From a virus (taxonomy: Duplodnaviria > Caudoviricetes): DNA of 34,784 nt. The position numbers were made by a program, and so were the translations under genes. Position 1 is the first letter of the stretch, and each line of letters opens with the position of its first letter. Where the stretch lies: positions 1 through 34,784 of IMG/VR virus record IMGVR_UViG_3300012667_000745; one strand, written 5' to 3'. Below, one piece after another: positions 19,621 through 34,784 of the stretch. Under the pieces are notes generated by a model. The model did no database searches. It was not told the origin of the DNA and worked only from the letters and a program-made list of their open reading frames with translations.

Positions 19621-21786
19621 TTAAAAAATCTCGCCCTTGTCGATGTCGAAGTTCTCTCCGATGTCGATCTCCCAAATCTTACCTCCACCGTTACCTCTAC
19701 TGCGCACAGTGCGCACGTTCGGGTTGTGTCGGCTGACTTCCTCAAGGACGGTCATGCCCCTACGCACGAACTCCAGATTGTTTGAGTTCCCAACGCTACG
19801 GCCCCCGTTCACCTCGTGCAATACGACGGTGAACTCGGTGAGCGTGCCGCGCCATTTCGGAGTCTCGATCTGCGACCGAACCTTTTTGGCGAAGAACTCG
19901 ACCATTTCCGCGATCGCAGAACGGCTCGAATTATCGTAGGCAGCGGCTTCGATGAACGAGTCGATATACGTTTTGACGCCAAACCGATTTGAGTCGCTGA
20001 CTTCAACAGGAGCTTGCCAGTCCAACAACCAACGCAAGAAGAACGGGAGCTCAGCAGCAATGGTTCCTTCGACCCATTGGTTCGAGCCGAACTTCATCTT
20101 GTGTCCGCTATTGATACGCAGCGCGATGATCTTGTCTCGGTTACTGGAATCCAAAGTAGGCAATGCCGCCAATGAGTTGGCATCCAAGTTGAGTGACATC
20201 ATCACCCGACCCGCCCACGGCAGCGGAACAGCGTCCGCATACTTGGCATGATATTCGAGCCTAGGATTTGCCACGCACCGCTTCGTGAGCTCAACAAACT
20301 TGCGTTGGTCTGCGTAGGTGGCAGCCGCAACTTGGTCGTCAATGACCCAAGCGGCAGAACCGCAGAGGTCTTTGTTGAAGCTAGTCGTGCCGGACAAGTA
20401 GCCGCTGGCATCACTGAACCCGCCCACTGAGCCACCGACAATCTGGTTGGTGAGCAGAGTCTTGCCGTGCCCAGTTGGGCCCAGCAAAATGAGCAAGTGT
20501 CCTTGATCCATACGACTTTCAAGCACCGCCTTATAGAGCCTTTGATACCATGCGAGGAAGTAAGGCAGAGTGCTGTTGCCCTTGTCGTCGTTCGTGAAGA
20601 ACGGCATCAAGAACTGATGAATCCACGGCCAGTTCTTCGGGTCCCCATCTTCCGCAGGTTTCACCGCTGAGGTGTAGCAGTTGTTCAGGATGCGTCTGCC
20701 GTTGAACTTCACGACGCGCTCTTTCGAGAACACGACAGGGGCAACTTCGTCCACCCGACAATCATTCGAGATCGTGAGCAACGCTTGCTCCACTTCTGAA
20801 ATCGGCTGGTTCTTGTTCTGCTTCGTGGAGAAACCGCTCTTACGTAATTCGAGCACGAGTTGCTTTTCCGGCACAGTTACCGGTGAATTGTGAAGCATCT
20901 TGTAGAATGCCTTGCCGTTGAACCAGTAGTTGTCTAGCAAAGTTCCGAGCTTCTTTTGCTCGAACTTCTCCATGAACTTCTTACCTAAGATTTCACGCCA
21001 GCTCTTGAATCCCGTTCCTGCACGATCCGAGTAGCACACGATTCCGTCCTCCCGAATCTGGCATCCGTCACGGTCAATGCCGTCGTCGATCCAGAACAGC
21101 GGGCCACGGGCCCCCACGATGAACTCGCCAGTCCACCTATTCGGGAAACGGGCCATGACCTCTTGGGCCACTTCGTCGATCGGGATATTGGTGTCCTCCG
21201 TCTTAATCACTACGTCGTTTGCCGCCTTAAGCAATAGCGTCCTAACGAACAAAGAGGGCAACGGGTCACCCATTTTGGTCCAGTCCTCACCGATTGCGTA
21301 ATACTGTGTCGGTTTCAGGCTGCAACTGTCGAACTTCGCACTTAGGGTTGGCGCTCGTAAAGCATCGGACAGACGCTTGTAGAATGCCACGGCGAGTTCT
21401 GGCGCTACGAGAATAGGCTCCTCGAATTCCCACACCAGACGCATGCCCTCGGATTGGGTTTTAGAGCGCCACGTTGGTAGTGATCCACCGTCGCATCGGT
21501 CAGTGAGGATCTGGTCAATGCGGCCCCACTCAGGCGGGCAGTCGTAATCGGCTACCCATCCATAGAGTTTGTTGATCGGATTGTCCGTAGAGATCCGTTG
21601 GTTCTTGTTGTCGCCCTCGGCCATCGTGAAGAAGCAATGGTCTGTATTGGCAGATGCGCACCACGCCCGATAATTGGCCTTGCGATCAATAGCGAAGTTT
21701 GGCCTAGGATAGGGTTTAGCGAGAGGGTCAGTAAAGGTCCCGTTGATTCCCACTTGCGTGAGATTTGAAATGTAGAGGTAACTCAT
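19621..21786 (-). CDS. Primase-helicase (prim-pol-like N-terminus plus P-loop NTPase)
   Basis: ADYD and SKTQSEGMRLVW motifs, Walker A LLGPTGHGKT, Walker B WVIDD; coupled to polA. Confidence 0.75.
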   Translation of the reverse strand: MSYLYISNLTQVGINGTFTDPLAKPYPRPNFAIDRKANYRAWCASANTDHCFFTMAEGDNKNQRISTDNPINKLYGWVADYDCPPEWGRIDQILTDRCDGGSLPTWRSKTQSEGMRLVWEFEEPILVAPELAVAFYKRLSDALRAPTLSAKFDSCSLKPTQYYAIGEDWTKMGDPLPSLFVRTLLLKAANDVVIKTEDTNIPIDEVAQEVMARFPNRWTGEFIVGARGPLFWIDDGIDRDGCQIREDGIVCYSDRAGTGFKSWREILGKKFMEKFEQKKLGTLLDNYWFNGKAFYKMLHNSPVTVPEKQLVLELRKSGFSTKQNKNQPISEVEQALLTISNDCRVDEVAPVVFSKERVVKFNGRRILNNCYTSAVKPAEDGDPKNWPWIHQFLMPFFTNDDKGNSTLPYFLAWYQRLYKAVLESRMDQGHLLILLGPTGHGKTLLTNQIVGGSVGGFSDASGYLSGTTSFNKDLCGSAAWVIDDQVAAATYADQRKFVELTKRCVANPRLEYHAKYADAVPLPWAGRVMMSLNLDANSLAALPTLDSSNRDKIIALRINSGHKMKFGSNQWVEGTIAAELPFFLRWLLDWQAPVEVSDSNRFGVKTYIDSFIEAAAYDNSSRSAIAEMVEFFAKKVRSQIETPKWRGTLTEFTVVLHEVNGGRSVGNSNNLEFVRRGMTVLEEVSRHNPNVRTVRSRGNGGGKIWEIDIGENFDIDKGEIF

Positions 21787-24404
21787 TTTGCGTAGAGGTC
21801 GAGGATGTGTCCTTCAGCAGCAACGGGAATGTCTGGAATCCAATCCGGTGGCGTTGACATGATGTTCAAGATGTTGCTAAGGGCTTCATCGGCAATCGCT
21901 TCAGGCACTTCGCAAACAACTTCGTCATGGACGTGCAGGATAATCGGGTATCCAGCGGCGTCAATACGCAGCATCATGTCAGAGAAGATATCTCTAGCAA
22001 GCCCCTGACTAGCATTTTCAGCGAGTGTGCCCCCGTATAGCTTGATGTCACGCATTCCGCCCATGCGATACATCTTGCCGATGATGGCAAAGCGATCGCC
22101 TAGGGCTTTCATTTTGCGCAGCTTGCCGTAGCGTAAAATACGGGCCGATGGTAGCTCCAACTCGAACGGAACGCCCAAAGCGCAGGCGGTAACCAGTTCC
22201 TGATTCAGCTTAGCCCAGTAATTCACTACCGACTTCATCCGTAAGCGGTAAGTGCGCACAGCTTGCTCAGCTTCCTCAAGGCTCATGCCGCTGAATTCAG
22301 CGAACCGAGCGGCCCCGATTCCGTAGCCACAATTGTGGACCACCATAGGGCCCGCGTCCGTAAGTATCGTGAACCTATTCCGTGGTCCCGCGAAGCTGAC
22401 ATCGTAGACTACTGACCTCCTTTTCGAGTTCGGTAATTCTTGTCTGCATACCATAAACGGTCCTGCGGTTTTGCATATTGTCAGATCTGGAGACAAATCG
22501 TAGGTTTTCTGGCTGGTAACCTCGATCATTGTCGATCCTGTCGAGTTGTAGTTCAGCGTCATCCCACCCTTTGAGGGTAGTGAGATAGGCGAGGAACTCC
22601 TGCCTTCGCCCCCTCCACGGTGGGAATACGTGTATTCCACGCCCCCCATAATGCCTGTAAGCTGCGTCATTTGGGTTGTGGCATCGGTTGATGCAGGCCG
22701 AAATACGGTCAAGAAGTCGCTGTCTAGCGTCGTGGTCGGGGACGAAATTTTCGTATCCGCTGTTCCTCCGATTGGTTTCCGCTGATTTCTGTTTGGCGCA
22801 CGTGTTGCACCTAGTTGTCCTTCCCGTTTTGACGTTGTTTCTGTCCACAACACCAATCCATCCGCATTCACACCGCATTCGCGGATGCCATGCCCTATTT
22901 TTGTTAACCCATTCGAGCACGGTAAAGTTACCGACCTTACTGCCGACTCCGTAAGGGAAGGGTTTGTAGCCACCTCGCACCACTCCAGCCACCCATCTTC
23001 CGTTAGAATCTCGTGGTCCTCTGTTACACCCACCCCGTGTTGTCTGATTGTCTCCTGTTCCCCTTGACATATAATTCCATTATGGTTAACCCACTCAACC
23101 CCATCCCATACTCGGTCTTGGGTTTCTAGATATAGAATAGGTTTCCAACCGTATTCAGTCAAGACCAAAGTATCGGGCTCAAAGCATCCCAAAACCATTG
23201 CCTTGACCCGTTGCCTGAGTCCTTTGTCGTAGTCCTTGAGCTCGCCGTTGGCTGGATCGTGCAGGCCCAACAACACACCGAACGCATGGTAGATGTCCTT
23301 AGCGTTGCGGATCATGTCCAAGGCCCGCTTGTCCCCCGCCAGATAACTGAGCGTGCGAACCTCAATCTGGGAAAGGTCAGCTACAATGAGCTTGTTGCCT
23401 GCCTTAGGCTTAATCATGTGCCGGAAATTGACTCCGAACATTTCTTCCCGAGGCAGGTTCTGCAAGTTGAGGTTGCCGCCGCTGCCGCTGAAACGTGCAG
23501 TTGGGTTCGCCCCGCAATACATGAGTCCCCCATAATAGCGATCGTCAGGCATCGTGCCGTAATCGAACGCCTGTAGTTTCTTCTGGAACATGTTAATGCG
23601 GCGGTAGTCCTGCACCGATCGTGCCCACGGGCAATCTTGTTGGTGTGCAGCAAACCACTTGTCCGCATCCTCGTTGCCTGCGGCCAAAGACTTCGGCGGG
23701 TCAATGCCTTGCTTGCGGCATTGTGCGTTGAATGCCTTGCGGCTCAACGGGGTTGCGTCACCGATCCAAGGGATTGACCGTTCGGCGTCAAACAAGGTGT
23801 TGCCAATCTTAACGATGTTCTCACGTAATGCTTTAACGTCGATCGGCAAACCGCGCTGGCAGATCTTGCGGTTCATCCGGCTGATGTCTCGCTCAACTTG
23901 CGGCCATTGCTCGTGTAATGTTTTCCAGATACGCAAGCAAAGCTGAGAGTCAACGATCGCGTATTGGGTGACCTCCTTGCGGAACTCCTCGGACATCGAA
24001 GACCATTGCAAGCCTTTCATGTTATCCCGAGTTGTCTTATCGACTTTGATGTCGAATAGGGTAGCACTCGCGTTTTTGAGCGAGCGGGGCAGACCTAAGT
24101 AGGCGACCATATCAGCGGTGCAGTGCCATTCGGCGGGAGTGCAAGGCTTGAACCAGCCGCAGTTTACCCCGTGCAGGTAGAGCGACTCATCGAAGGAGGC
24201 GTTGTGGCTCAAGACAGTATGGCCGTTAAGCATGGACCAGTCGAATTCCCGAGGGCAGCCTGCGTATACATAACCATCATCCCCGACGACGGTTACCATA
24301 TAGGCTTCAAAAGAAGGGTGCGAGAAATACCCAGCAGGTCCTAGTGTGGTGATAGAGCATTCGGAGTCGTAGAAACTCTCGAAATCCAAGGCGTATGTAA
24401 TCAT
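21783..24404 (-). CDS. polA: Family A DNA polymerase precursor containing an intein (588 aa after splicing)
   Basis: Exonuclease motifs LDFES and HNASFD; TARFSG, NLQNLP, motif A DLSQIEVR, motif B RQRVKAMVLG|CGYG, motif C HVHDE. Confidence 0.95.
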   Translation of the reverse strand: MITYALDFESFYDSECSITTLGPAGYFSHPSFEAYMVTVVGDDGYVYAGCPREFDWSMLNGHTVLSHNASFDESLYLHGVNCGWFKPCTPAEWHCTADMVAYLGLPRSLKNASATLFDIKVDKTTRDNMKGLQWSSMSEEFRKEVTQYAIVDSQLCLRIWKTLHEQWPQVERDISRMNRKICQRGLPIDVKALRENIVKIGNTLFDAERSIPWIGDATPLSRKAFNAQCRKQGIDPPKSLAAGNEDADKWFAAHQQDCPWARSVQDYRRINMFQKKLQAFDYGTMPDDRYYGGLMYCGANPTARFSGSGGNLNLQNLPREEMFGVNFRHMIKPKAGNKLIVADLSQIEVRTLSYLAGDKRALDMIRNAKDIYHAFGVLLGLHDPANGELKDYDKGLRQRVKAMVLGCFEPDTLVLTEYGWKPILYLETQDRVWDGVEWVNHNGIICQGEQETIRQHGVGVTEDHEILTEDGWLEWCEVATNPSLTESAVRSVTLPCSNGLTKIGHGIRECGVNADGLVLWTETTSKREGQLGATRAPNRNQRKPIGGTADTKISSPTTTLDSDFLTVFRPASTDATTQMTQLTGIMGGVEYTYSHRGGGEGRSSSPISLPSKGGMTLNYNSTGSTMIEVTSQKTYDLSPDLTICKTAGPFMVCRQELPNSKRRSVVYDVSFAGPRNRFTILTDAGPMVVHNCGYGIGAARFAEFSGMSLEEAEQAVRTYRLRMKSVVNYWAKLNQELVTACALGVPFELELPSARILRYGKLRKMKALGDRFAIIGKMYRMGGMRDIKLYGGTLAENASQGLARDIFSDMMLRIDAAGYPIILHVHDEVVCEVPEAIADEALSNILNIMSTPPDWIPDIPVAAEGHILDLYAK
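22332..23186 (-). mobile_element. Intein (285 aa, precursor residues 407-691) in PolA motif B
   Basis: Block A CFEPDTLVLT, block B VTEDHEILT, block F VYDV...NRFTI, block G VVHN followed by Cys+1. Confidence 0.95.
22375..23070 (-). CDS. HNH homing endonuclease nested inside the intein in the -1 frame
   Basis: RCECG...RCNTC, RCHNPNDAAYRHYGGRGI and LDRIDNDRGYQPENLRFVSRSDNMQNRR motifs; own ATG and TAG. Confidence 0.9.
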   Translation of the reverse strand: MSRGTGDNQTTRGGCNRGPRDSNGRWVAGVVRGGYKPFPYGVGSKVGNFTVLEWVNKNRAWHPRMRCECGWIGVVDRNNVKTGRTTRCNTCAKQKSAETNRRNSGYENFVPDHDARQRLLDRISACINRCHNPNDAAYRHYGGRGIHVFPPWRGRRQEFLAYLTTLKGWDDAELQLDRIDNDRGYQPENLRFVSRSDNMQNRRTVYGMQTRITELEKEVSSLRCQLRGTTE

Positions 24405-28586: not shown

Positions 28587-29875
28587 GCGGTGTGTAATGT
28601 CTCCCTAAAGAGCCTTTTATGTTCGAGCTTTACAAGTATTTTTTCTTCAATTGTTCCGGACGCCACCAATACCCGTTGCACGCAAGGGGACTTTGCCCCT
28701 GCTCTGTGGATACGGCCTAAGGTTTGAACGTAGGCTTTCTCGTCGAACGTGGGCGAGATCAAACTCATCCGAGGATGGCCGCCTACCGTATCGTGCAAGG
28801 ATACCCCCGTTCCGCCTGCTGCGATATTGCAGACGATCACTCGTGACTCGTTGCGTTGGAACGATTGGATATTCTCTTCGCGCTCCGTATCCTTCTGGCC
28901 GCCGACTACAACAGCGCATTTCGCGCCAAAGGATTCCTGCAAGGCTTTGACGGTATCGACAAAGTTTACAAACACAGCAACGCTGAATCCTTCCGCACGG
29001 GCTTCCCACACCATGTCGATGATGTCTGGGACCTTAGCCGCTTCGGCCAACTGTCTCGCCCGAAGCATTTCCACTAAGACGTGCGGGGATGCCCCACCGT
29101 TTTCAAGGAACTGCTCCACGATTTCCGGCGTGATTCCGTGTTCGGCGTAGAACTTGGCAATGTCCTTGAGGGAGGCAAACGCAAGGGGTTCCGTGATGAT
29201 TTGGTTTCCTGCGAATTCACTTGCAAGATCCCCGCAAGTCAAACGCGTGGCGGTTACACCATACATCTTAGCGTTGATCTCCTTGAGCTTAGCGACTGAG
29301 CCAGCATGCCAAGCGTTCCAATGGTCCTTGCGGCAGCCGTGTTCCAGCATCCAAGTGAACCAGCTCTTGAGCTGGCCCTCAGCGCGGTTCAAGGAATGCA
29401 GCCCTAAGGCAAATCCAATACTCCGCATTTCTGTAGGGTCTTGGCAGGCTGTAGCGGACAGCATCAAGTTGTAGTAGCCTGCTTGCTTTGCCGCGATGAG
29501 CATCTGACTGTTCTGGCTGAACGGGGACATGCAGCGGTGAACTTCATCCCAGATGATTAGTGTATTTTCCGGTAGCATCCACCGGAATAGTTTCTTGCCT
29601 ACCTTAGCCAGATGTGGCCCGCCGCGTTTGAGCTTCTCGTAGTTGGTTACAAATACGGGCTCGATGCCTAGCTCCGCGAGCTCGCGCTTCCATTGCGGGA
29701 TAACGATCTTCGGGCATACGATGGCAACGGGCATGCCTAATTCAAGAGCAGCCCTACATGAGATAACCGTCTTGCCTACTCCGGTTCCCGAACTATCCAA
29801 CGCGCCCTTGTGCTGCAAGAGCGCGTCCTTCAGGAAGTCAACGGACGTTCGTTGTTTAGCGTAAAGAGTTTTCAT
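28583..29875 (-). CDS. Superfamily 2 (SNF2-like) helicase
   Basis: GTGVGKT, DEVH, SAT, AGGTGVSL and QTLGRIHRAG motifs. Confidence 0.9.
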   Translation of the reverse strand: MKTLYAKQRTSVDFLKDALLQHKGALDSSGTGVGKTVISCRAALELGMPVAIVCPKIVIPQWKRELAELGIEPVFVTNYEKLKRGGPHLAKVGKKLFRWMLPENTLIIWDEVHRCMSPFSQNSQMLIAAKQAGYYNLMLSATACQDPTEMRSIGFALGLHSLNRAEGQLKSWFTWMLEHGCRKDHWNAWHAGSVAKLKEINAKMYGVTATRLTCGDLASEFAGNQIITEPLAFASLKDIAKFYAEHGITPEIVEQFLENGGASPHVLVEMLRARQLAEAAKVPDIIDMVWEARAEGFSVAVFVNFVDTVKALQESFGAKCAVVVGGQKDTEREENIQSFQRNESRVIVCNIAAGGTGVSLHDTVGGHPRMSLISPTFDEKAYVQTLGRIHRAGAKSPCVQRVLVASGTIEEKILVKLEHKRLFRETLHTA

Positions 29876-29904
29876 GGCTTGCCTTTTGGTTGTTAGTCAT
29901 TTGC

Positions 29905-30483
29905 TTATACAGATTGGGGTAGGTTATCGAATACACAACTTATCACTTCCCGCACTATAGCTTTTCGTGAGCGTGACCGCTCTGTCTCCATACTATCATT
30001 GTATGCTGCCATCATGCCAAGGGGCACATCCACAACACCGGTAACTGTTTCGGGATCATAGCCGTGAGTGTGGTGTAGGACGGCCAGTGTTGCGCCGCCC
30101 ATACCCATTTTCTTAATTAACCGTGGGACATTTACTTTTGCGGTTTCGTAAACCTCGTGCGCTTTCTGCTCTTCGCTTTCGAGCACATCCCCAATTCCGA
30201 TACCCACATTAAATGGTCGCTTCTGGCATTCTGCGGGCAAGTCATCCCACCGGACGTTCTCCCTAGTTCTCCCGCACCAGAAGCATTTACAAGATCGTAA
30301 GGACGAGGGGAAGTTATGAGTGTTTGGGTCTGATCGGAAGTGGGGAGCATGATAGGCGTGATAGGCTTTCATCACGCTATCCTTTTCTTCAGGCGACGCG
30401 TCGAAGAACTGTCGCGCAATTCGGACAATACTAATATCTGGATAGAGTGCAGTCTTCTGTCCGATGTCGGGGGTGGTTTTCAT
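29905..30483 (-). CDS. Protein with a Cys cluster and an alanyl-tRNA synthetase-like helical fragment
   Basis: IGDVLESEE...G..LAVLHHTHGY...YNDSMETERSRSR resembles AlaRS I..VL..EE...G..AF.L.DTYGF...F...M..QR.RSR. Confidence 0.55.
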   Translation of the reverse strand: MKTTPDIGQKTALYPDISIVRIARQFFDASPEEKDSVMKAYHAYHAPHFRSDPNTHNFPSSLRSCKCFWCGRTRENVRWDDLPAECQKRPFNVGIGIGDVLESEEQKAHEVYETAKVNVPRLIKKMGMGGATLAVLHHTHGYDPETVTGVVDVPLGMMAAYNDSMETERSRSRKAIVREVISCVFDNLPQSV

Positions 30484-31181
30484 TGCTCGCCTTTAGGTTG
30501 CGCGTCGTTATGGATTGTCTTCTTGAAACCTACGTTTCCGGCAATGTGATATACGACTACCCCTTCTGGATTCATGTAGTTCGGAGCGGCTTTGCTTCCA
30601 GTTGCCCCAAGCACAGTGAGGGTAGAGTTTACAAATGCAGTGTCAAATGGCCCACGATAAAGGATAGGCACTACTTTACAGCATGCAGGCGCACGTTCTT
30701 GCGGTTTATGGGTCATCTCTTTGGTTTTGTAGTCCCATTCCGTGGATGCAACGCCAATTGGATCGTCTCCAGCAACCCAACGTCCTGCGTTAAACAACGA
30801 GAAGAAGCGTTCGCCGTTCTTGAAGCCGTAGCCGCGTTGGATACCGCTACCCCACCATTCTCCGAAGTGGTGCCCTTCACCCAACTTGAAAAGTTCGCTG
30901 GCATTAGCGACTGCCCAATTGGCGAAGCCGTAGTTGTCATTGGCAGTAGTAATCCAACGGGTTCGGCTTCCGGCCCACATGCCTAAGGCGCTGCCGTCTT
31001 TATTGAAAAGTGTAGCAATCGACTTAAAGTCGGTGTGGTCTGTGGGTCCGATGTAAATGCTGGCATTCGTGCCATCAATTTTCTCACTAATTATCACTTC
31101 CCGAGAGAGCCTTGCCATTTTGGGGAATGGCTTAAATTTATTCTGATTTTGTTGTGTTTCCATTTCCTGTTTTCCTATCAC
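30480..31181 (-). CDS. ATP-dependent RNA ligase (Rnl2-like adenylyltransferase domain)
   Basis: Motif I EKIDGTN, GSRTRWI, FGEWWG, FSLF, PEGVVV and FKK. Start GTG 31181 or ATG 31163. Confidence 0.85.
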   Translation of the reverse strand: MIGKQEMETQQNQNKFKPFPKMARLSREVIISEKIDGTNASIYIGPTDHTDFKSIATLFNKDGSALGMWAGSRTRWITTANDNYGFANWAVANASELFKLGEGHHFGEWWGSGIQRGYGFKNGERFFSLFNAGRWVAGDDPIGVASTEWDYKTKEMTHKPQERAPACCKVVPILYRGPFDTAFVNSTLTVLGATGSKAAPNYMNPEGVVVYHIAGNVGFKKTIHNDAQPKGEQ

Positions 31182-31575
31182 GGGTTCGTATTCTGTGGCA
31201 ATTGGCGCAAACTAATTCGCATTTGTCCAACTCGGTTTGTATAAGCTCTCGGCTGTAATGGTGGGCGAACATGCTGCCGATGTTGTAGGCTTTCTTGCCC
31301 CCCTTGCAGTGATCGAAGTCCATGCAGCACACCGGAAAGCATTCTCCGCAGTCTGTGCATGGCTTTGATTTTAATTCGACCATCCACGCCTTGAGTGCTA
31401 CCGCCTTGGCTCCTTCGTCCCTCCATCGACCTCCTGTCGCATATCTGCGAGCGCGATAAACCCTCACCGATTCGTTGTGCTTTTCCCGGTTCTTGGCTAC
31501 CCAGTTCCGTTGTCGAATTATGGCGGCTTCCTTTTGCTCCTTGGTCAGGACCCTTTTCTTTTTTGTTACACCCAT
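31138..31575 (-). CDS. HNH endonuclease
   Basis: CTDCG...MDFDH...KCELVCANCHRIRT with a basic N-terminal arm. Confidence 0.9.
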   Translation of the reverse strand: MGVTKKKRVLTKEQKEAAIIRQRNWVAKNREKHNESVRVYRARRYATGGRWRDEGAKAVALKAWMVELKSKPCTDCGECFPVCCMDFDHCKGGKKAYNIGSMFAHHYSRELIQTELDKCELVCANCHRIRTRDRKTGNGNTTKSE

Positions 31576-31581
31576 AGCGGA

Positions 31582-31609
31582 AGTATGGACTAAACGTCAA
31601 GGATGTCAA
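31582..31609 (-). promoter_or_regulatory. Promoter for the HNH cassette, probably leaderless
   Basis: TTGACA-16nt-CATACT, then 6 nt to ATG 31575. Confidence 0.55.
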
Positions 31610-31615
31610 TGCTTG

Positions 31616-31681
31616 CTTTTCTGTAATCATGCACTCGCGTGATAGGCGAGCCATCTTTGGGAATGGTTTGAATTCGGTCAT
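31616..31681 (-). pseudogene. Orphaned original 5' end of the RNA ligase gene (22 codons)
   Basis: MTEFKPFPKMARLSRECMITEK matches FKPFPKMARLSREVIISEK in the ligase. The frame stays open to 31178. Confidence 0.8.
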
Positions 31682-31887
31682 TTGTTTAGGTAGTGTGAGT
31701 TAATTGCGTCAAAGCCAGATTTTCGTAATCTGTTTCTAATCAGGCCGATTTTCTTGTCGAGCAAAGACAGTGTGGTTTCCGTGTTGTGTTTGCCGGATAC
31801 CCGACTCAAGCACCAGTCCGATAACGCTTGCAGCTCCTTCTGCAAGCGGCATCGGTATGCGTTGTCTATGATTTGTTTGTCAGTCAT
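31678..31887 (-). CDS. Hypothetical protein
   Basis: MTDKQIID..., overlapping both neighbours. Confidence 0.55.
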   Translation of the reverse strand: MTDKQIIDNAYRCRLQKELQALSDWCLSRVSGKHNTETTLSLLDKKIGLIRNRLRKSGFDAINSHYLNK

Positions 31888-32182
31888 TTTTCCATTTGTT
31901 GATGGTTTTGAGAAATGCTTCTGCGCGTTTGGCAGCGGTAGCCTGCATAACTTCAACTAAATCGCCAGTCAGCAGTTCTGCTACGGTAATCTGCTGGTCG
32001 AATGGTAGTCTCTCTATTGCAGTATGCATCGCGTTGAGGTCTGTAAGGTAGCTCGGAATAATTTTTGATTCGCCCGTTGGGTCAACTCCCCGCAGACCAC
32101 CGTAACTAAATCGGTTGATTCGCTCAATGCATGTCCACCCGCAGGCCTCGGCAATCGTAATCCGTTGTTGTTCCGTGTTCAT
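31880..32182 (-). CDS. Phage ABA-sandwich-like protein, paralog 2
   Basis: QRITIAEACGW...PSYLTDLNAMH...ATAAKRAEAFLKT. Confidence 0.7.
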   Translation of the reverse strand: MNTEQQRITIAEACGWTCIERINRFSYGGLRGVDPTGESKIIPSYLTDLNAMHTAIERLPFDQQITVAELLTGDLVEVMQATAAKRAEAFLKTINKWKND

Positions 32183-32532
32183 GGTTCCCATAAGTCAAGT
32201 GTTCTGAGAAACGCTTCGCAGCGTTGGGCAGCGGTGGCGTGTATAGAGATACGTTCGTTATCGTAGGCACTCCACCCGATGACTTCAGCAATTAGAACGC
32301 TTTGGTATTTTTTACGCAGGGGATCTGTCAGCGTCTTCTCAAACTCATGGCATGCGTTGAGGTCGTTGAGGTAGTCAGGGCAACTCGTAAAACCGCCCCA
32401 GTTCTGATACACCATTCCGTCCGGCGCGAGCCAGTCACTCACGTTTTTTCGCTTTACCCACCCGCAGGCTTCAGCAATAGCGATTCGTTGGGCTTCAGGA
32501 CTCATGGTGTCGTGTGTTTTGATTTCGTTCAT
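32179..32532 (-). CDS. Phage ABA-sandwich-like protein, paralog 1
   Basis: QRIAIAEACGW...PDYLNDLNACH...ATAAQRCEAFLRT. Confidence 0.7.
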   Translation of the reverse strand: MNEIKTHDTMSPEAQRIAIAEACGWVKRKNVSDWLAPDGMVYQNWGGFTSCPDYLNDLNACHEFEKTLTDPLRKKYQSVLIAEVIGWSAYDNERISIHATAAQRCEAFLRTLDLWEP

Positions 32533-32571
32533 GGTTTTATAAATCTGACTTTGGTTTGTTTATTTGGCTGT

Positions 32572-32865
32572 TCATCCAATATAAATCCATGCCAGTTCGC
32601 GGCGTTCGTGGGTAGCTTGGCAGCGTTTGCATTCCGCGTTGCCGTTCCGTAGCAAGTGGAAGCTCACGCTCCCGCATGCGCATTTCAGGCATTCGTCGCG
32701 GCCATCTTCCGGCTTCATCGCGTAGTCTGGGCAGTTTCTTTTCTTCCACCCGTATTCCGAATCAAGTTCGTTTTTGGGCATATACCAACGGGGATTGCGA
32801 CCAGCAAGGCAGGTTACTTTTTTGTCGTGATAGACGAGGTTGGTGCATTTATCGCAGGGACTCAT
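32572..32865 (-). CDS. Cys-rich zinc-binding protein
   Basis: CDKC, CACG and CKRC motifs. Confidence 0.6.
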   Translation of the reverse strand: MSPCDKCTNLVYHDKKVTCLAGRNPRWYMPKNELDSEYGWKKRNCPDYAMKPEDGRDECLKCACGSVSFHLLRNGNAECKRCQATHERRELAWIYIG

Positions 32866-32889
32866 AAGAGGATGAACAAGTCGTGAGAC

Positions 32890-33237
32890 CTAACCGGATA
32901 CAGCCGGATTGTTTGATTTTGAAGCGGAGTCCTGCGCGGCTGTATCCGGCAGGTCCACATGGGCGTTAGCCAGAGAAAGGTTGGTGTATCCGTAGAAGGC
33001 GATGTTGGCCGCGTTCCCCTGGATGCCGGGATGGTCTAGTGTCAGCACCTCTTTTACATCGTTCAGTTTATCGTCGCGAAGCACCTCGCGCCCTTCTCTT
33101 AGCGCGAGGAATAACGGGTAGTGCGGGCTTTCCTTGGAAGGGGGTCTTGCGTTTCTCGGATACCAGAGATCAATGTGCATTTCGTCGCCATACTGGCGAG
33201 CCTGACTTAGAATCGTATCATCTTCTTCGGTGTTCAT
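32890..33237 (-). CDS. Hypothetical protein
   Basis: 115-aa ORF with an A/C-rich leader typical of this arm. Confidence 0.55.
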   Translation of the reverse strand: MNTEEDDTILSQARQYGDEMHIDLWYPRNARPPSKESPHYPLFLALREGREVLRDDKLNDVKEVLTLDHPGIQGNAANIAFYGYTNLSLANAHVDLPDTAAQDSASKSNNPAVSG

Positions 33238-33277
33238 TTGAGTTATCGGTGTTGGTTTTTGGATTTTGGAATTACCA

Positions 33278-33949
33278 TTAGTCGTTCAGCACATACTTCA
33301 TTTGTCCAGCATCCGCGATTGACGCGCACAGCGGGAAGTGCTCTGCGAACTGAGTGAAGATGCTGTTGGCTAGATCACGATGCTCCTTCTGAGCATGTGC
33401 CGAACGACGTTGCCAGAAGTAGGTGATCCAGCTACGGACGCTGCCCTTCATGTAGGCACGAGTGGGTGTGCATAGCGGCAGCACCATACGGGCGGATTCA
33501 GGTGCGGCTCCGCAGTCCAACAACCATTCGTATTCTGCTGCGGCTCTACCTGCTTCAAAGATAGTATGTTCTGACAGCAAACTGCTTACCTCACCTGACC
33601 CCTGTCTGTTCCCACCTTCGTGTTTCAGACGGATTTCCAAATCGCTGAAATCGAATTCCTTAACTTCCGCATAGCGTTGCGAGAACTCTTGAAACTTAAA
33701 CGAAGAATGGCGCAGGATCTGAGCCATGATTGCTCTGCTGGTGTGGATCTCGAACGTCACGTCCACCATATCGAAGACAGACCAATGTCCGTTTTGTAGG
33801 CAATATCGTAGGAGTCCTTCTCCGGTTCCGTGGTTGTGCTGGTTGTTCGGTGAGCTGACTCGGGCTTGGTAAACGATGAACTGCTCGGGGGTAAGATCAA
33901 GCAGATCGGCTTGGATGGGTTTGGTGATGCTTACGATTTCTGATTTCAT
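33278..33949 (-). CDS. thyX: Flavin-dependent thymidylate synthase
   Basis: ARVS, HWSVF, SRAIMAQILRHSSFKFQEFSQRY, ESARMVLP and HAQKEH motifs. Confidence 0.95.
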   Translation of the reverse strand: MKSEIVSITKPIQADLLDLTPEQFIVYQARVSSPNNQHNHGTGEGLLRYCLQNGHWSVFDMVDVTFEIHTSRAIMAQILRHSSFKFQEFSQRYAEVKEFDFSDLEIRLKHEGGNRQGSGEVSSLLSEHTIFEAGRAAAEYEWLLDCGAAPESARMVLPLCTPTRAYMKGSVRSWITYFWQRRSAHAQKEHRDLANSIFTQFAEHFPLCASIADAGQMKYVLND

Positions 33950-34012
33950 TTTGTTGTGTTTAGTATTAGGGGTAAGGGGCCCTACATTGAGCAGGGCCCC
34001 TGTTGTGTGGGA

Positions 34013-34465
34013 TTAGAGTTTGATCACAGATGCGGTTTCGAACCACATCCGCGAGATTGGCTTATCCTGAGGCATGTAGCCTTTGGCTGCGTCTACCAGT
34101 AGAGCGCATGTGAGTAGCGCCTTTGCGATATCTTGCTGGCCTAGCTTATTGGCTTTCTCCACTAAAGATAGAACATCCAATTTTGGGTCGGGCAAGCAGA
34201 CATCGGAAGCCATCAACAGGTATACCGGCTTACCTTCTTTCTTCACTAAGCGTTCAGCTTCCTTGCGGGCGTCTTCAATGGTGGCATGCTTGACAGTGGG
34301 TGCTGACCCACCTTCTACGTGTAGCATGTAGAATTCTTGATCTTCGAATCTTTTCGCTGGCTTATCTTTAGGTCCGAAGAGGGCGTCGAGTTGTTTGTTG
34401 AGTAGGTCTGACATATTAGTTTGCTGTTGCGGGTCTTGGTTAATGGGGATTTGTTTTTGCGTCAA
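34013..34465 (-). CDS. Hypothetical protein (start uncertain, possibly MSDLL)
   Basis: PTVKHATIEDARKEAERL phage-type motif. Confidence 0.6.
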   Translation of the reverse strand: MTQKQIPINQDPQQQTNMSDLLNKQLDALFGPKDKPAKRFEDQEFYMLHVEGGSAPTVKHATIEDARKEAERLVKKEGKPVYLLMASDVCLPDPKLDVLSLVEKANKLGQQDIAKALLTCALLVDAAKGYMPQDKPISRMWFETASVIKL

Positions 34466-34474
34466 TAAATTTTT

Positions 34475-34777
34475 TCAATCTTTTACGGCTTCAATGTGGT
34501 GCGGCTCCCCCGAAAAATAAATAGTCTTGTTCCAGCCGTCCCCCTCAATGTCATACAAAATATGGCGATCTTTTGCGACGATTGTGTGGCCTTTGAATGT
34601 CCCGCGATACACCCAACGGTCATAGCCTTCAGGGATAGGTGGTAGATTCCATCCAGACGGTATCGGCAGGACGCGCTGATCCAACGCAACAGACTCGTCT
34701 TTGATGGCTTCTGCTTTTGCCACAGCAGCAGCAGCAAAGGTAACTCGCACAGGCTTCTTGTTCCTGTCATCCTGCAA
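34475..34777 (-). CDS. Hypothetical protein, possibly truncated by the window edge
   Basis: ORF runs to near the right edge on the operon strand. Confidence 0.45.
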   Translation of the reverse strand: MQDDRNKKPVRVTFAAAAVAKAEAIKDESVALDQRVLPIPSGWNLPPIPEGYDRWVYRGTFKGHTIVAKDRHILYDIEGDGWNKTIYFSGEPHHIEAVKD

Positions 34778-34784
34778 CGTGCCG

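Follow-up and report, generated by a model that had tools for sequence, protein, structure and literature searches.

The ligase locus and its duplicated 5' end

The stretch of DNA analysed here, called the window, is a 34.8-kb virus record with a replication module (PolA-type polymerase, exonuclease, helicase and Thy1) on the minus strand. On the same strand, the sequence encoding the amino terminus of an RNA ligase is present twice, at 31672-31616 (FKPFPKMARLSRECMITEK) and at 31136-31080 (FKPFPKMARLSREVIISEK). We reproduced this duplication, which had been described in the original prediction, together with its composition: the two copies are identical at 38 of 57 nucleotides and at 16 of 19 amino acids, and 12 of the 16 shared residues are encoded by different codons. 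Copy 1 stands upstream as a stub, and copy 2 belongs to a cassette that also contains a promoter-like site and an HNH gene (Table 1). The cassette sits at EK/IDG of the Rnl2-like ligase (the slash marks the junction), and this position bears out the claim that the insertion lies in ligase motif I, directly after the codon of the predicted catalytic lysine.

Copy 2 runs into the body of the ligase (31079-30480), which is of the host lineage. The rebuilt protein has an adenylyltransferase domain with the motif I lysine, and both its sequence and its structure model assign it to the Rnl2-like RNA ligases (PF09414): the family profile points to T4 Rnl2 (E 0.0035), and the model (pLDDT 91.7) has T4 Rnl2 (2hvr, E 4e-5) as its top fold match. 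Sequence searches of solved structures with the single ligase and the single HNH protein gave nothing useful.

Table 1. Features of the ligase locus; all are on the minus strand (-).
Feature	Positions	Strand	Observation
Upstream host ORF; its stop overlaps the ATG of the stub (ATGA)	31678..31956	-	Also in L001
Stub, stranded original ligase 5' end (MTEFKPFPKMARLSRECMITEK), host lineage	31616..31681	-	49-51/57 nt to empty alleles L001-L003
Cassette, 536 bp, not a multiple of 3	31080..31615	-	Absent in L001-L003; skipped by contigs X1, X3, X4
Sigma70-type promoter-like site, TTGACA-16-CATACT	31582..31609	-	10/12; top of 6 sites in 30000-34784
HNH endonuclease gene, 145 aa	31138..31575	-	phrog_3106, E 4e-25 (PHROG HNH families)
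Read-through ORF, 167 aa; stub frame open across the HNH gene	31178..31681	-	0 stops vs 3.9 expected, P 0.004
Predicted ribosome-binding site (AGGA) and ATG of the rebuilt ligase	31161..31176	-	Written in HNH codons D-R-K-T-G-N-G
Replacement ligase 5' end, METQQNQNK + FKPFPKMARLSREVIISEK, ending AGT GAG AAA	31080..31163	-	37-39/57 nt to L001-L003
Rebuilt motif I junction, S-E-K/I-D-G-T-N	31065..31088	-	Codon signature of linked alleles
Rebuilt RNA ligase ORF, 227 aa, Rnl2-like adenylyltransferase domain	30480..31163	-	PF09414 (E 2e-11), phrog_548

Three further observations concern the surroundings of the gene, all on the minus strand. Two adjacent paralogous small ORFs (RIxIAEACGW...DLNA.H...QRxEAFLxT) are located upstream of the ligase at 31880-32532, and the many contig joints in this interval mark it as variable. 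An ORF of 192 residues without known family lies between ligase and helicase (29905-30483). It is missing from the related loci L001 and L002 and is skipped by a contig from a public sequencing run (X2), and is thus a second strain-specific insertion. The DNA polymerase ORF (21783-24404) has an endonuclease-like internal segment (phrog_93, residues 428-699) between its polymerase parts, which from its sequence is likely to be an intein.

Empty alleles and the foreign origin of copy 2

The cassette-free alleles with copy-1 codons that had been postulated do exist. L001 and L002 are close relatives of the window (95% nucleotide identity in the helicase) with uninterrupted ligases, and L001-L003 run from copy-1-type codons straight into IDG. 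In a comparison of the loci, the upstream flank of the stub continues into L001; 41 of the 45 nucleotides past the junction also match this allele, and the rebuilt ligase is 82% identical to that of L001 at the amino acid level. As copy 1 and the body match L001-L003 while copy 2 diverges, copy 1 and body represent the host, and copy 2 arrived with the HNH gene. Copy 2 is equally distant from all host-lineage alleles. A donor allele was not found among the ligase blocks compared, the best match being 43/57 nucleotides among blocks linked to an HNH gene of this kind and 41/57 among empty ones.

Filled and empty forms were both found as DNA within the same runs. Contigs from three of four public runs (X1, X3 and X4) skip exactly 536 bp at 31080/31617, and a contig from the fourth, X2, skips 536 bp in a register 12 nucleotides away. 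An independent X1 contig of 1470 nucleotides, which is about 94% identical to the window, spans both cassette junctions. An assembly chimera of two strains might be suspected in a metagenomic virus record when empty strains are abundant in related samples, but this contig, together with recurrence of the layout in 12 other loci, makes such an artefact practically out of the question. Within the cassette, the filled X1 allele differs from the window at 18 of 535 positions, compared with about 22 of 184 in the flanks (Fisher P 5e-5; the flank count was obtained by subtraction between two separate comparisons). The same cassette is thus found between different flanks in close strains, and the contrast suggests spread between strains.

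Introns and inteins are typically inserted at conserved catalytic motifs, and this position counts in favour of removal of the cassette by RNA or protein splicing, which would restore the original gene. The cassette itself argues against such removal. Apart from 40 non-coding nucleotides before the HNH gene the cassette is coding, comparison of 29500-33300 with Rfam gave no match at E <= 1, stub and body are in different frames at a distance of 536 nucleotides, and a complete second start is present. A group I intron with a HEG was rejected because the 40 non-coding nucleotides and the absence of an Rfam match leave no ribozyme core around the ORF; an intein was rejected because the insertion is not in frame. 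We regard splicing as highly improbable. On the sequence evidence, the element would need none, as had been proposed.

The HNH gene carries the start of the rebuilt ligase

The HNH protein consists of a basic helical amino-terminal part and a Cys-rich HNH domain (clade alignment A1). A Pfam search with the ORF gave no match. The structure model (pLDDT 80.5) revealed weak fold matches, mostly to HNH nucleases such as 4h9d; none of the Foldseek matches reached E <= 0.001, and the best VIA Z was 4.5. The sequence CCMDxDH is conserved in 114 of 120 HNH homologues, and its His is presumably the catalytic residue.

The TTGACA-16-CATACT promoter that had been reported to precede the HNH gene could be located, and is promoter-like by sequence. 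Six such sites were found in 30000-34784 when 4.6 are expected by chance. The HNH ATG stands 6 nucleotides past the site. A site of the type TTGA-16/18-CATA(C/A)T occurs in 10 of 30 loci, with the ATG 6 nucleotides after the -10 box in eight of these, and a leaderless HNH mRNA is predicted from this arrangement. The heptamer TTTAGTC is conserved immediately before the -10 box. Conservation between cassettes of different hosts was also observed for TTTAGTCCATA (31582-31594), which immediately precedes the -10 box and extends into it; this sequence has a single occurrence in the window and is found as an inverted repeat upstream of the HNH gene in L179. Judged by its position and conservation, it is a possible operator for autoregulation of the HNH gene.

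That the element supplies a new ligase start was confirmed: the ATG at 31163 lies within the C-terminal codons of the HNH gene. The codons of the conserved HNH tail R-R-T-G-(N/S/H)-G contain AGGAG(A/G), and a shift of frame turns up an ATG or GTG. An ATG or GTG in the ligase frame is found at one same position inside the HNH gene in 26 of 32 linked loci, and the best-scoring ligase start falls inside the HNH gene in 31 of the 32. Among 119 database HNH homologues, 103 have G-[NSH] at the place that encodes the start.

An open frame from the stub to the new start

Copy 1 has no stop after EK, and its frame stays open for 167 codons to 31178, ending 14 nucleotides before the new ligase ATG. Zero stops in this frame were found in three of 30 loci with DNA; the others contain 2-24. 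Synonymous shuffling gave uncorrected P values of 0.004 for the window, 0.0005 for L195 and 0.012 for L202, although in L202 the stub is one base out of the read-through frame. A protein search detected seven further ORFs composed of stub and read-through (54-71% identity) with at least four different junctions. Six of them share their end point, and the seventh stops a few residues short of it; all seven could be found only because they are open, so that they are ascertained on openness.

We rejected a function for the read-through peptide as a protein, since 14 of 15 strain variants alter its sequence; the peptide is thus not conserved, and it has no Pfam or PHROG match. Through the open frame itself, ribosomes that began at the old, operon-coupled start might reach the new ligase start, an option that on these frame data we consider quite possible but hold at somewhat less than even odds. 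Other loci appear to solve the coupling by fusion of stub and HNH gene or, in L168, by ending the stub next to where the HNH gene begins.

Related cassettes in other ligases

A search with a clade-specific motif yielded 47 loci, 41 of which are HNH genes. In 37 of the 41, ligase motif I is located just downstream of the HNH gene, and these represent 32 distinct blocks including the window. The expectation of related cassettes in many other ligases is thereby confirmed. On inspection, L180 and L202 proved to be linked too, while L177 has no ligase beside its HNH gene. The same HNH clade was also observed at RNA ligases of a second subfamily, whose amino terminus is longer (KIETLYER...WxF[TS]EKIDGT), in L171, L180 and L187, again with stubs; in L187 the HNH gene is apparently broken by a deletion or rearrangement. 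The database contains 710 related proteins, not all of which need belong to the HNH clade. Among cultured phages no close HNH relative was found (all 169 matches are below 60%), and a scan of genome contigs for the clade motif gave four matches, none of them an HNH gene.

Enough upstream DNA was available for 29 distinct loci, and 12 of these retain a stub (10 identified by profile score, two by eye). In the ligase subfamily of the window, stubs comprise 7-19 codons, mostly ending at codons 17-19, and none extends past the lysine. As no stub could be detected in the other 17 loci, it is not an obligatory part of the element. Three of the 12 stubs are fused in frame to the HNH gene; fusions of this kind are seen in L171, L192, L201, P0075 and P0090. 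L171 has the tandem order HNH-stub-HNH-ligase, the pattern that repeated homing predicts, as one clear case on a short contig.

These stubs can also be explained in another way. A free-standing intronless HEG of the T4 Seg/Mob kind might co-convert the 5' end of its neighbour, with the stubs left as debris of illegitimate left-end repair; the two explanations differ in the role of the stub only. The missing stubs, the variable stub lengths and stub-promoter junctions, and the in-frame fusions would fit with debris. Free-standing T4 HEGs that overlap their neighbours are known (PMC2988022), and gene fragments beside HEGs have been noted (PMC10055350), as far as the accessible parts of these two texts go. 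Debris would, on the other hand, not be expected to cluster at codons 17-19 and never beyond K, nor does it explain the same cassette between different flanks in close strains or a ligase start that is hard-wired in HNH codons. We consider a mere debris role doubtful.

In a FastTree phylogeny of 143 ligase bodies, the 23 linked ones require 16 changes, at least seven of which are forced by starred branches. Shuffling gave a mean of 21.6 changes and a value as low as 16 in one of 500 shuffles, so the linked bodies are still clustered; for 17 of the 23, the closest body is nonetheless an unlinked one. On this tree, the cassettes recur in scattered ligase lineages, with lateral spread. This distribution bears on the idea that HNH protein and ligase are a domesticated functional pair (e.g. 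for nucleic-acid cutting and repair) in which the duplication is incidental. Tight linkage (37/41 loci), overlapping frames and the good conservation of the HNH protein would suit such a pair, but the HNH gene is near none of the 80 closest ligase loci, the viral collection contains only seven clade loci compared with about 920 ligase-motif stretches, linked alleles are scattered on the ligase tree, the host stubs are truncated, and altered residues beside the catalytic lysine are confined to linked alleles. A domesticated pair is therefore very unlikely.

Upon analysis of 101 more distant HNH loci, a clear 5' duplicate was found in none of the 22 top-scoring rows inspected. Three of the distant relatives have, at the sequence level, mirror-image (3') duplications: in L349 (190-1833) the HNH gene follows a recA-like gene and repeats the final 30 residues of that gene at its own end; in L088 (1806-2863) a 3' duplicate follows an RNA ligase (ENDEIHKWEVTQ compared with EGDELHKWQQS); and in L356 (58-1996) one follows an unnamed gene of 285 residues. 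Separately, in L369, L375 and L096, HNH genes with a double domain are enclosed by tandem paralogues, all full-length, of an unknown protein of 170 residues.

Codon differences and a signature at motif I

The original prediction had explained the different codons of copy 2 as recoding against the displaced copy, which would evade the nuclease and prevent deletion by recombination between the copies. The 12 different codons among 16 shared residues speak for this, as do the low same-codon values of L161 (3/16) and L195 (1/11) and the smaller share of common codons in empty-versus-linked pairs (0.305) than in empty-empty pairs (0.402); linked-linked pairs share 0.49. Over 10 stub/replacement pairs, however, same-codon use was 42/111 = 0.378, compared with 0.373 for stubs and the 5' ends of other cassettes (P = 0.55); this test left out L171 and L180, which belong to the other ligase subfamily, and the truncated L202. 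Furthermore, L163, L165 and L167 share 50-64% of their codons, 20% of 891 random empty-versus-linked pairs match or undercut the window's value of 3/15, and copy 2 is no closer to one host-lineage allele than to another. Strict recoding is thus largely refuted and we consider it very unlikely. Copy 2 is better read as a distant, A-rich foreign allele that was carried with the HNH gene, and not as a rewrite of the stub.

The related proposal of self-immunity has indirect support. Wholesale recoding is not supported, but the sequences contain a narrow and partly non-synonymous signature at codons 17-23 which may confer resistance. In the linked alleles the lysine of motif I is always encoded by AAA (32/32), compared with 29/64 near empties and 22/92 of a motif-drawn sample. 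After matching for GC3, the values are 29/29 linked and 18/50 empty; lysine usage of the genes themselves predicts only 12.9/27, and for the second conserved lysine of this block AAA is used in only 18/29. ACC or ACG before E never occurs in linked alleles, where the residue at this position is T in 15, S in 13, L in three and G in one. The canonical TEK[IL]DGTN is present in five of 32 linked but in 63 of 64 empty alleles. Since the linked blocks are kin by descent and A-rich, P values overstate their independence.

In the window, the stub ends with AAG and the replacement with AGT GAG AAA, which fits expectation if the host was sensitive. We infer from these codons that the rebuilt junction is a resistant version of the nuclease target. 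Counter to this, the stubs of L163 and L167 end with AAA, those of L165 and L167 carry the 'resistant' S-E pattern, and the closest empty alleles, L001-L003, also have AAA. Stubs with S-E or AAA either need re-invasion or weaken the immunity reading.

Proposed mechanism

We propose that the HNH gene and the ligase 5' end carried with it form a splicing-free homing element at motif I, which cuts cassette-free alleles near EK/IDG and is copied in by recombination repair. On the comparative evidence we give this reading a probability of nearly 80%. During co-infection, the HNH protein would cut or nick an empty ligase allele. Homology on the right-hand side would come from the conserved IDGTN side, that on the left from the stub of the donor or from a few bases at the E-K codons, and the first codons of the recipient would be left stranded upstream. 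The gene would nevertheless be rebuilt because the last codons of the HNH gene spell a ribosome-binding site and a start, followed by the carried block of 19 codons. This block may resist the nuclease through the lysine codon AAA, loss of ACC/ACG before it, T>S/L/G, or T/N>S/C after DG, that is, by few positions instead of wholesale recoding. In the sub-lineage of the window, ribosomes from the old start could in addition translate across the cassette and terminate at the new ribosome-binding site, which would keep the ligase coupled to the host operon; this step has perhaps two chances in five.

Comparison with known elements

Splicing-free replacement of a gene end is not unprecedented, as it is known at 3' ends from WHO elements and from fungal mORFs. 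The following comparison relates to the accessible parts of the cited texts. In yeast, WHO elements exchange the 3' end of FBA1 for their own, and the old end persists as a fragment; allele-specific cutting and cluster formation are described for them (Coughlan et al., 2020, PMC7282813). They have been classified as a third, considerably rarer category of homing elements in yeast, and resistant FBA1 alleles show variation next to a residue of the active site (Osborne et al., 2026, preprint, 10.64898/2026.08.13.744650). Like the phage cassette, a WHO element combines an endonuclease gene with an allelic replacement end, requires no splicing and leaves the rebuilt ORF intact, which for the phage element is deduced from sequence. 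In both, the displaced fragment is on the far side and breaks near one position. To the tandem WHO clusters formed by re-invasion may correspond the single case of L171 on its short contig, and to the resistant-allele variation beside an active-site residue the apparent sequence signature at motif I. The two differ in that the phage cassette replaces the 5' end with about 19 conserved codons and the WHO element a 3' half of about 400 bp. HNH, RNA ligase and phage in one case stand against a LAGLIDADG/intein-like protein with zinc finger, FBA1 and the yeast nucleus in the other. Unlike a WHO element, the phage cassette has to bring a start with it, and this start lies within the nuclease codons.

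Fungal mitochondrial mORFs carry a foreign C-terminus, as in atp6 of Allomyces and atp6, atp9, cox2 and nad3 of Glomus (PMC3630166). As in the phage cassette, a hybrid gene results, made up of a native piece that resembles close relatives and an inserted foreign piece; nucleotide identity of the foreign piece is 64-81% in the mORFs and 65-68% in the phage cassette. According to the same partly available text, mORFs are C-terminal, contain LAGLIDADG or GIY-YIG and are located in organelles, whereas the phage cassette is N-terminal and of HNH type.

Free-standing phage HEGs include T4 Seg/Mob, Aeh1 mobE in nrdA and T4 mobA (PMC2988022). They share with the phage cassette the lack of an intron, a position beside or inside conserved phage genes and the overlap with neighbours; mobE and mobA, however, split the host gene into two polypeptides, while the cassette rebuilds the ligase as a whole. 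For HEG-islands, fragments of essential genes beside HEGs were proposed as recombination substrates, and the part of the text consulted makes no mention of gene starts being replaced, of breaks fixed at a catalytic motif or of alleles that resist (PMC10055350). Nothing pertinent was contained in the available parts of PMC5871332, PMC6221350 and PMC12724721. The cassette has a HEG-family nuclease domain outside an intron or intein (PHROG HNH matches), and shows sporadic presence, empty cognate alleles and lateral spread. As it works like WHO elements and mORFs but is a member of neither, we would place it among the free-standing phage HEGs, as a type that replaces 5' ends. A literature search, mostly without subscription journals, found no published 5'-end replacement by a phage HEG.

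Significance

Two cautions for annotation follow from the locus: amino termini of phage ligases can be chimeric, and gene callers list the read-through frame of the stub as a hypothetical protein. The family provides 32 distinct natural nuclease/target pairs and predicts a testable recognition site and a resistance code at the level of single codons. Since the ligase family has cultured members (phages of Caulobacter, Mycobacterium smegmatis and Streptomyces), targets for such assays are available. The logic of gene-end replacement would thus be found in phages, mirrored to the 5' end. We tentatively suggest, as an idea with about one chance in three, that phages hold a widespread counterpart of the WHO 'third category' that replaces gene starts, with the start placed in nuclease codons, an open frame for re-initiation and conserved motif I residues given up for resistance, so that an arms race would take place at the active site of the ligase. 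The proposed element would show how a selfish gene can occupy the active-site codon of an enzyme without splicing.
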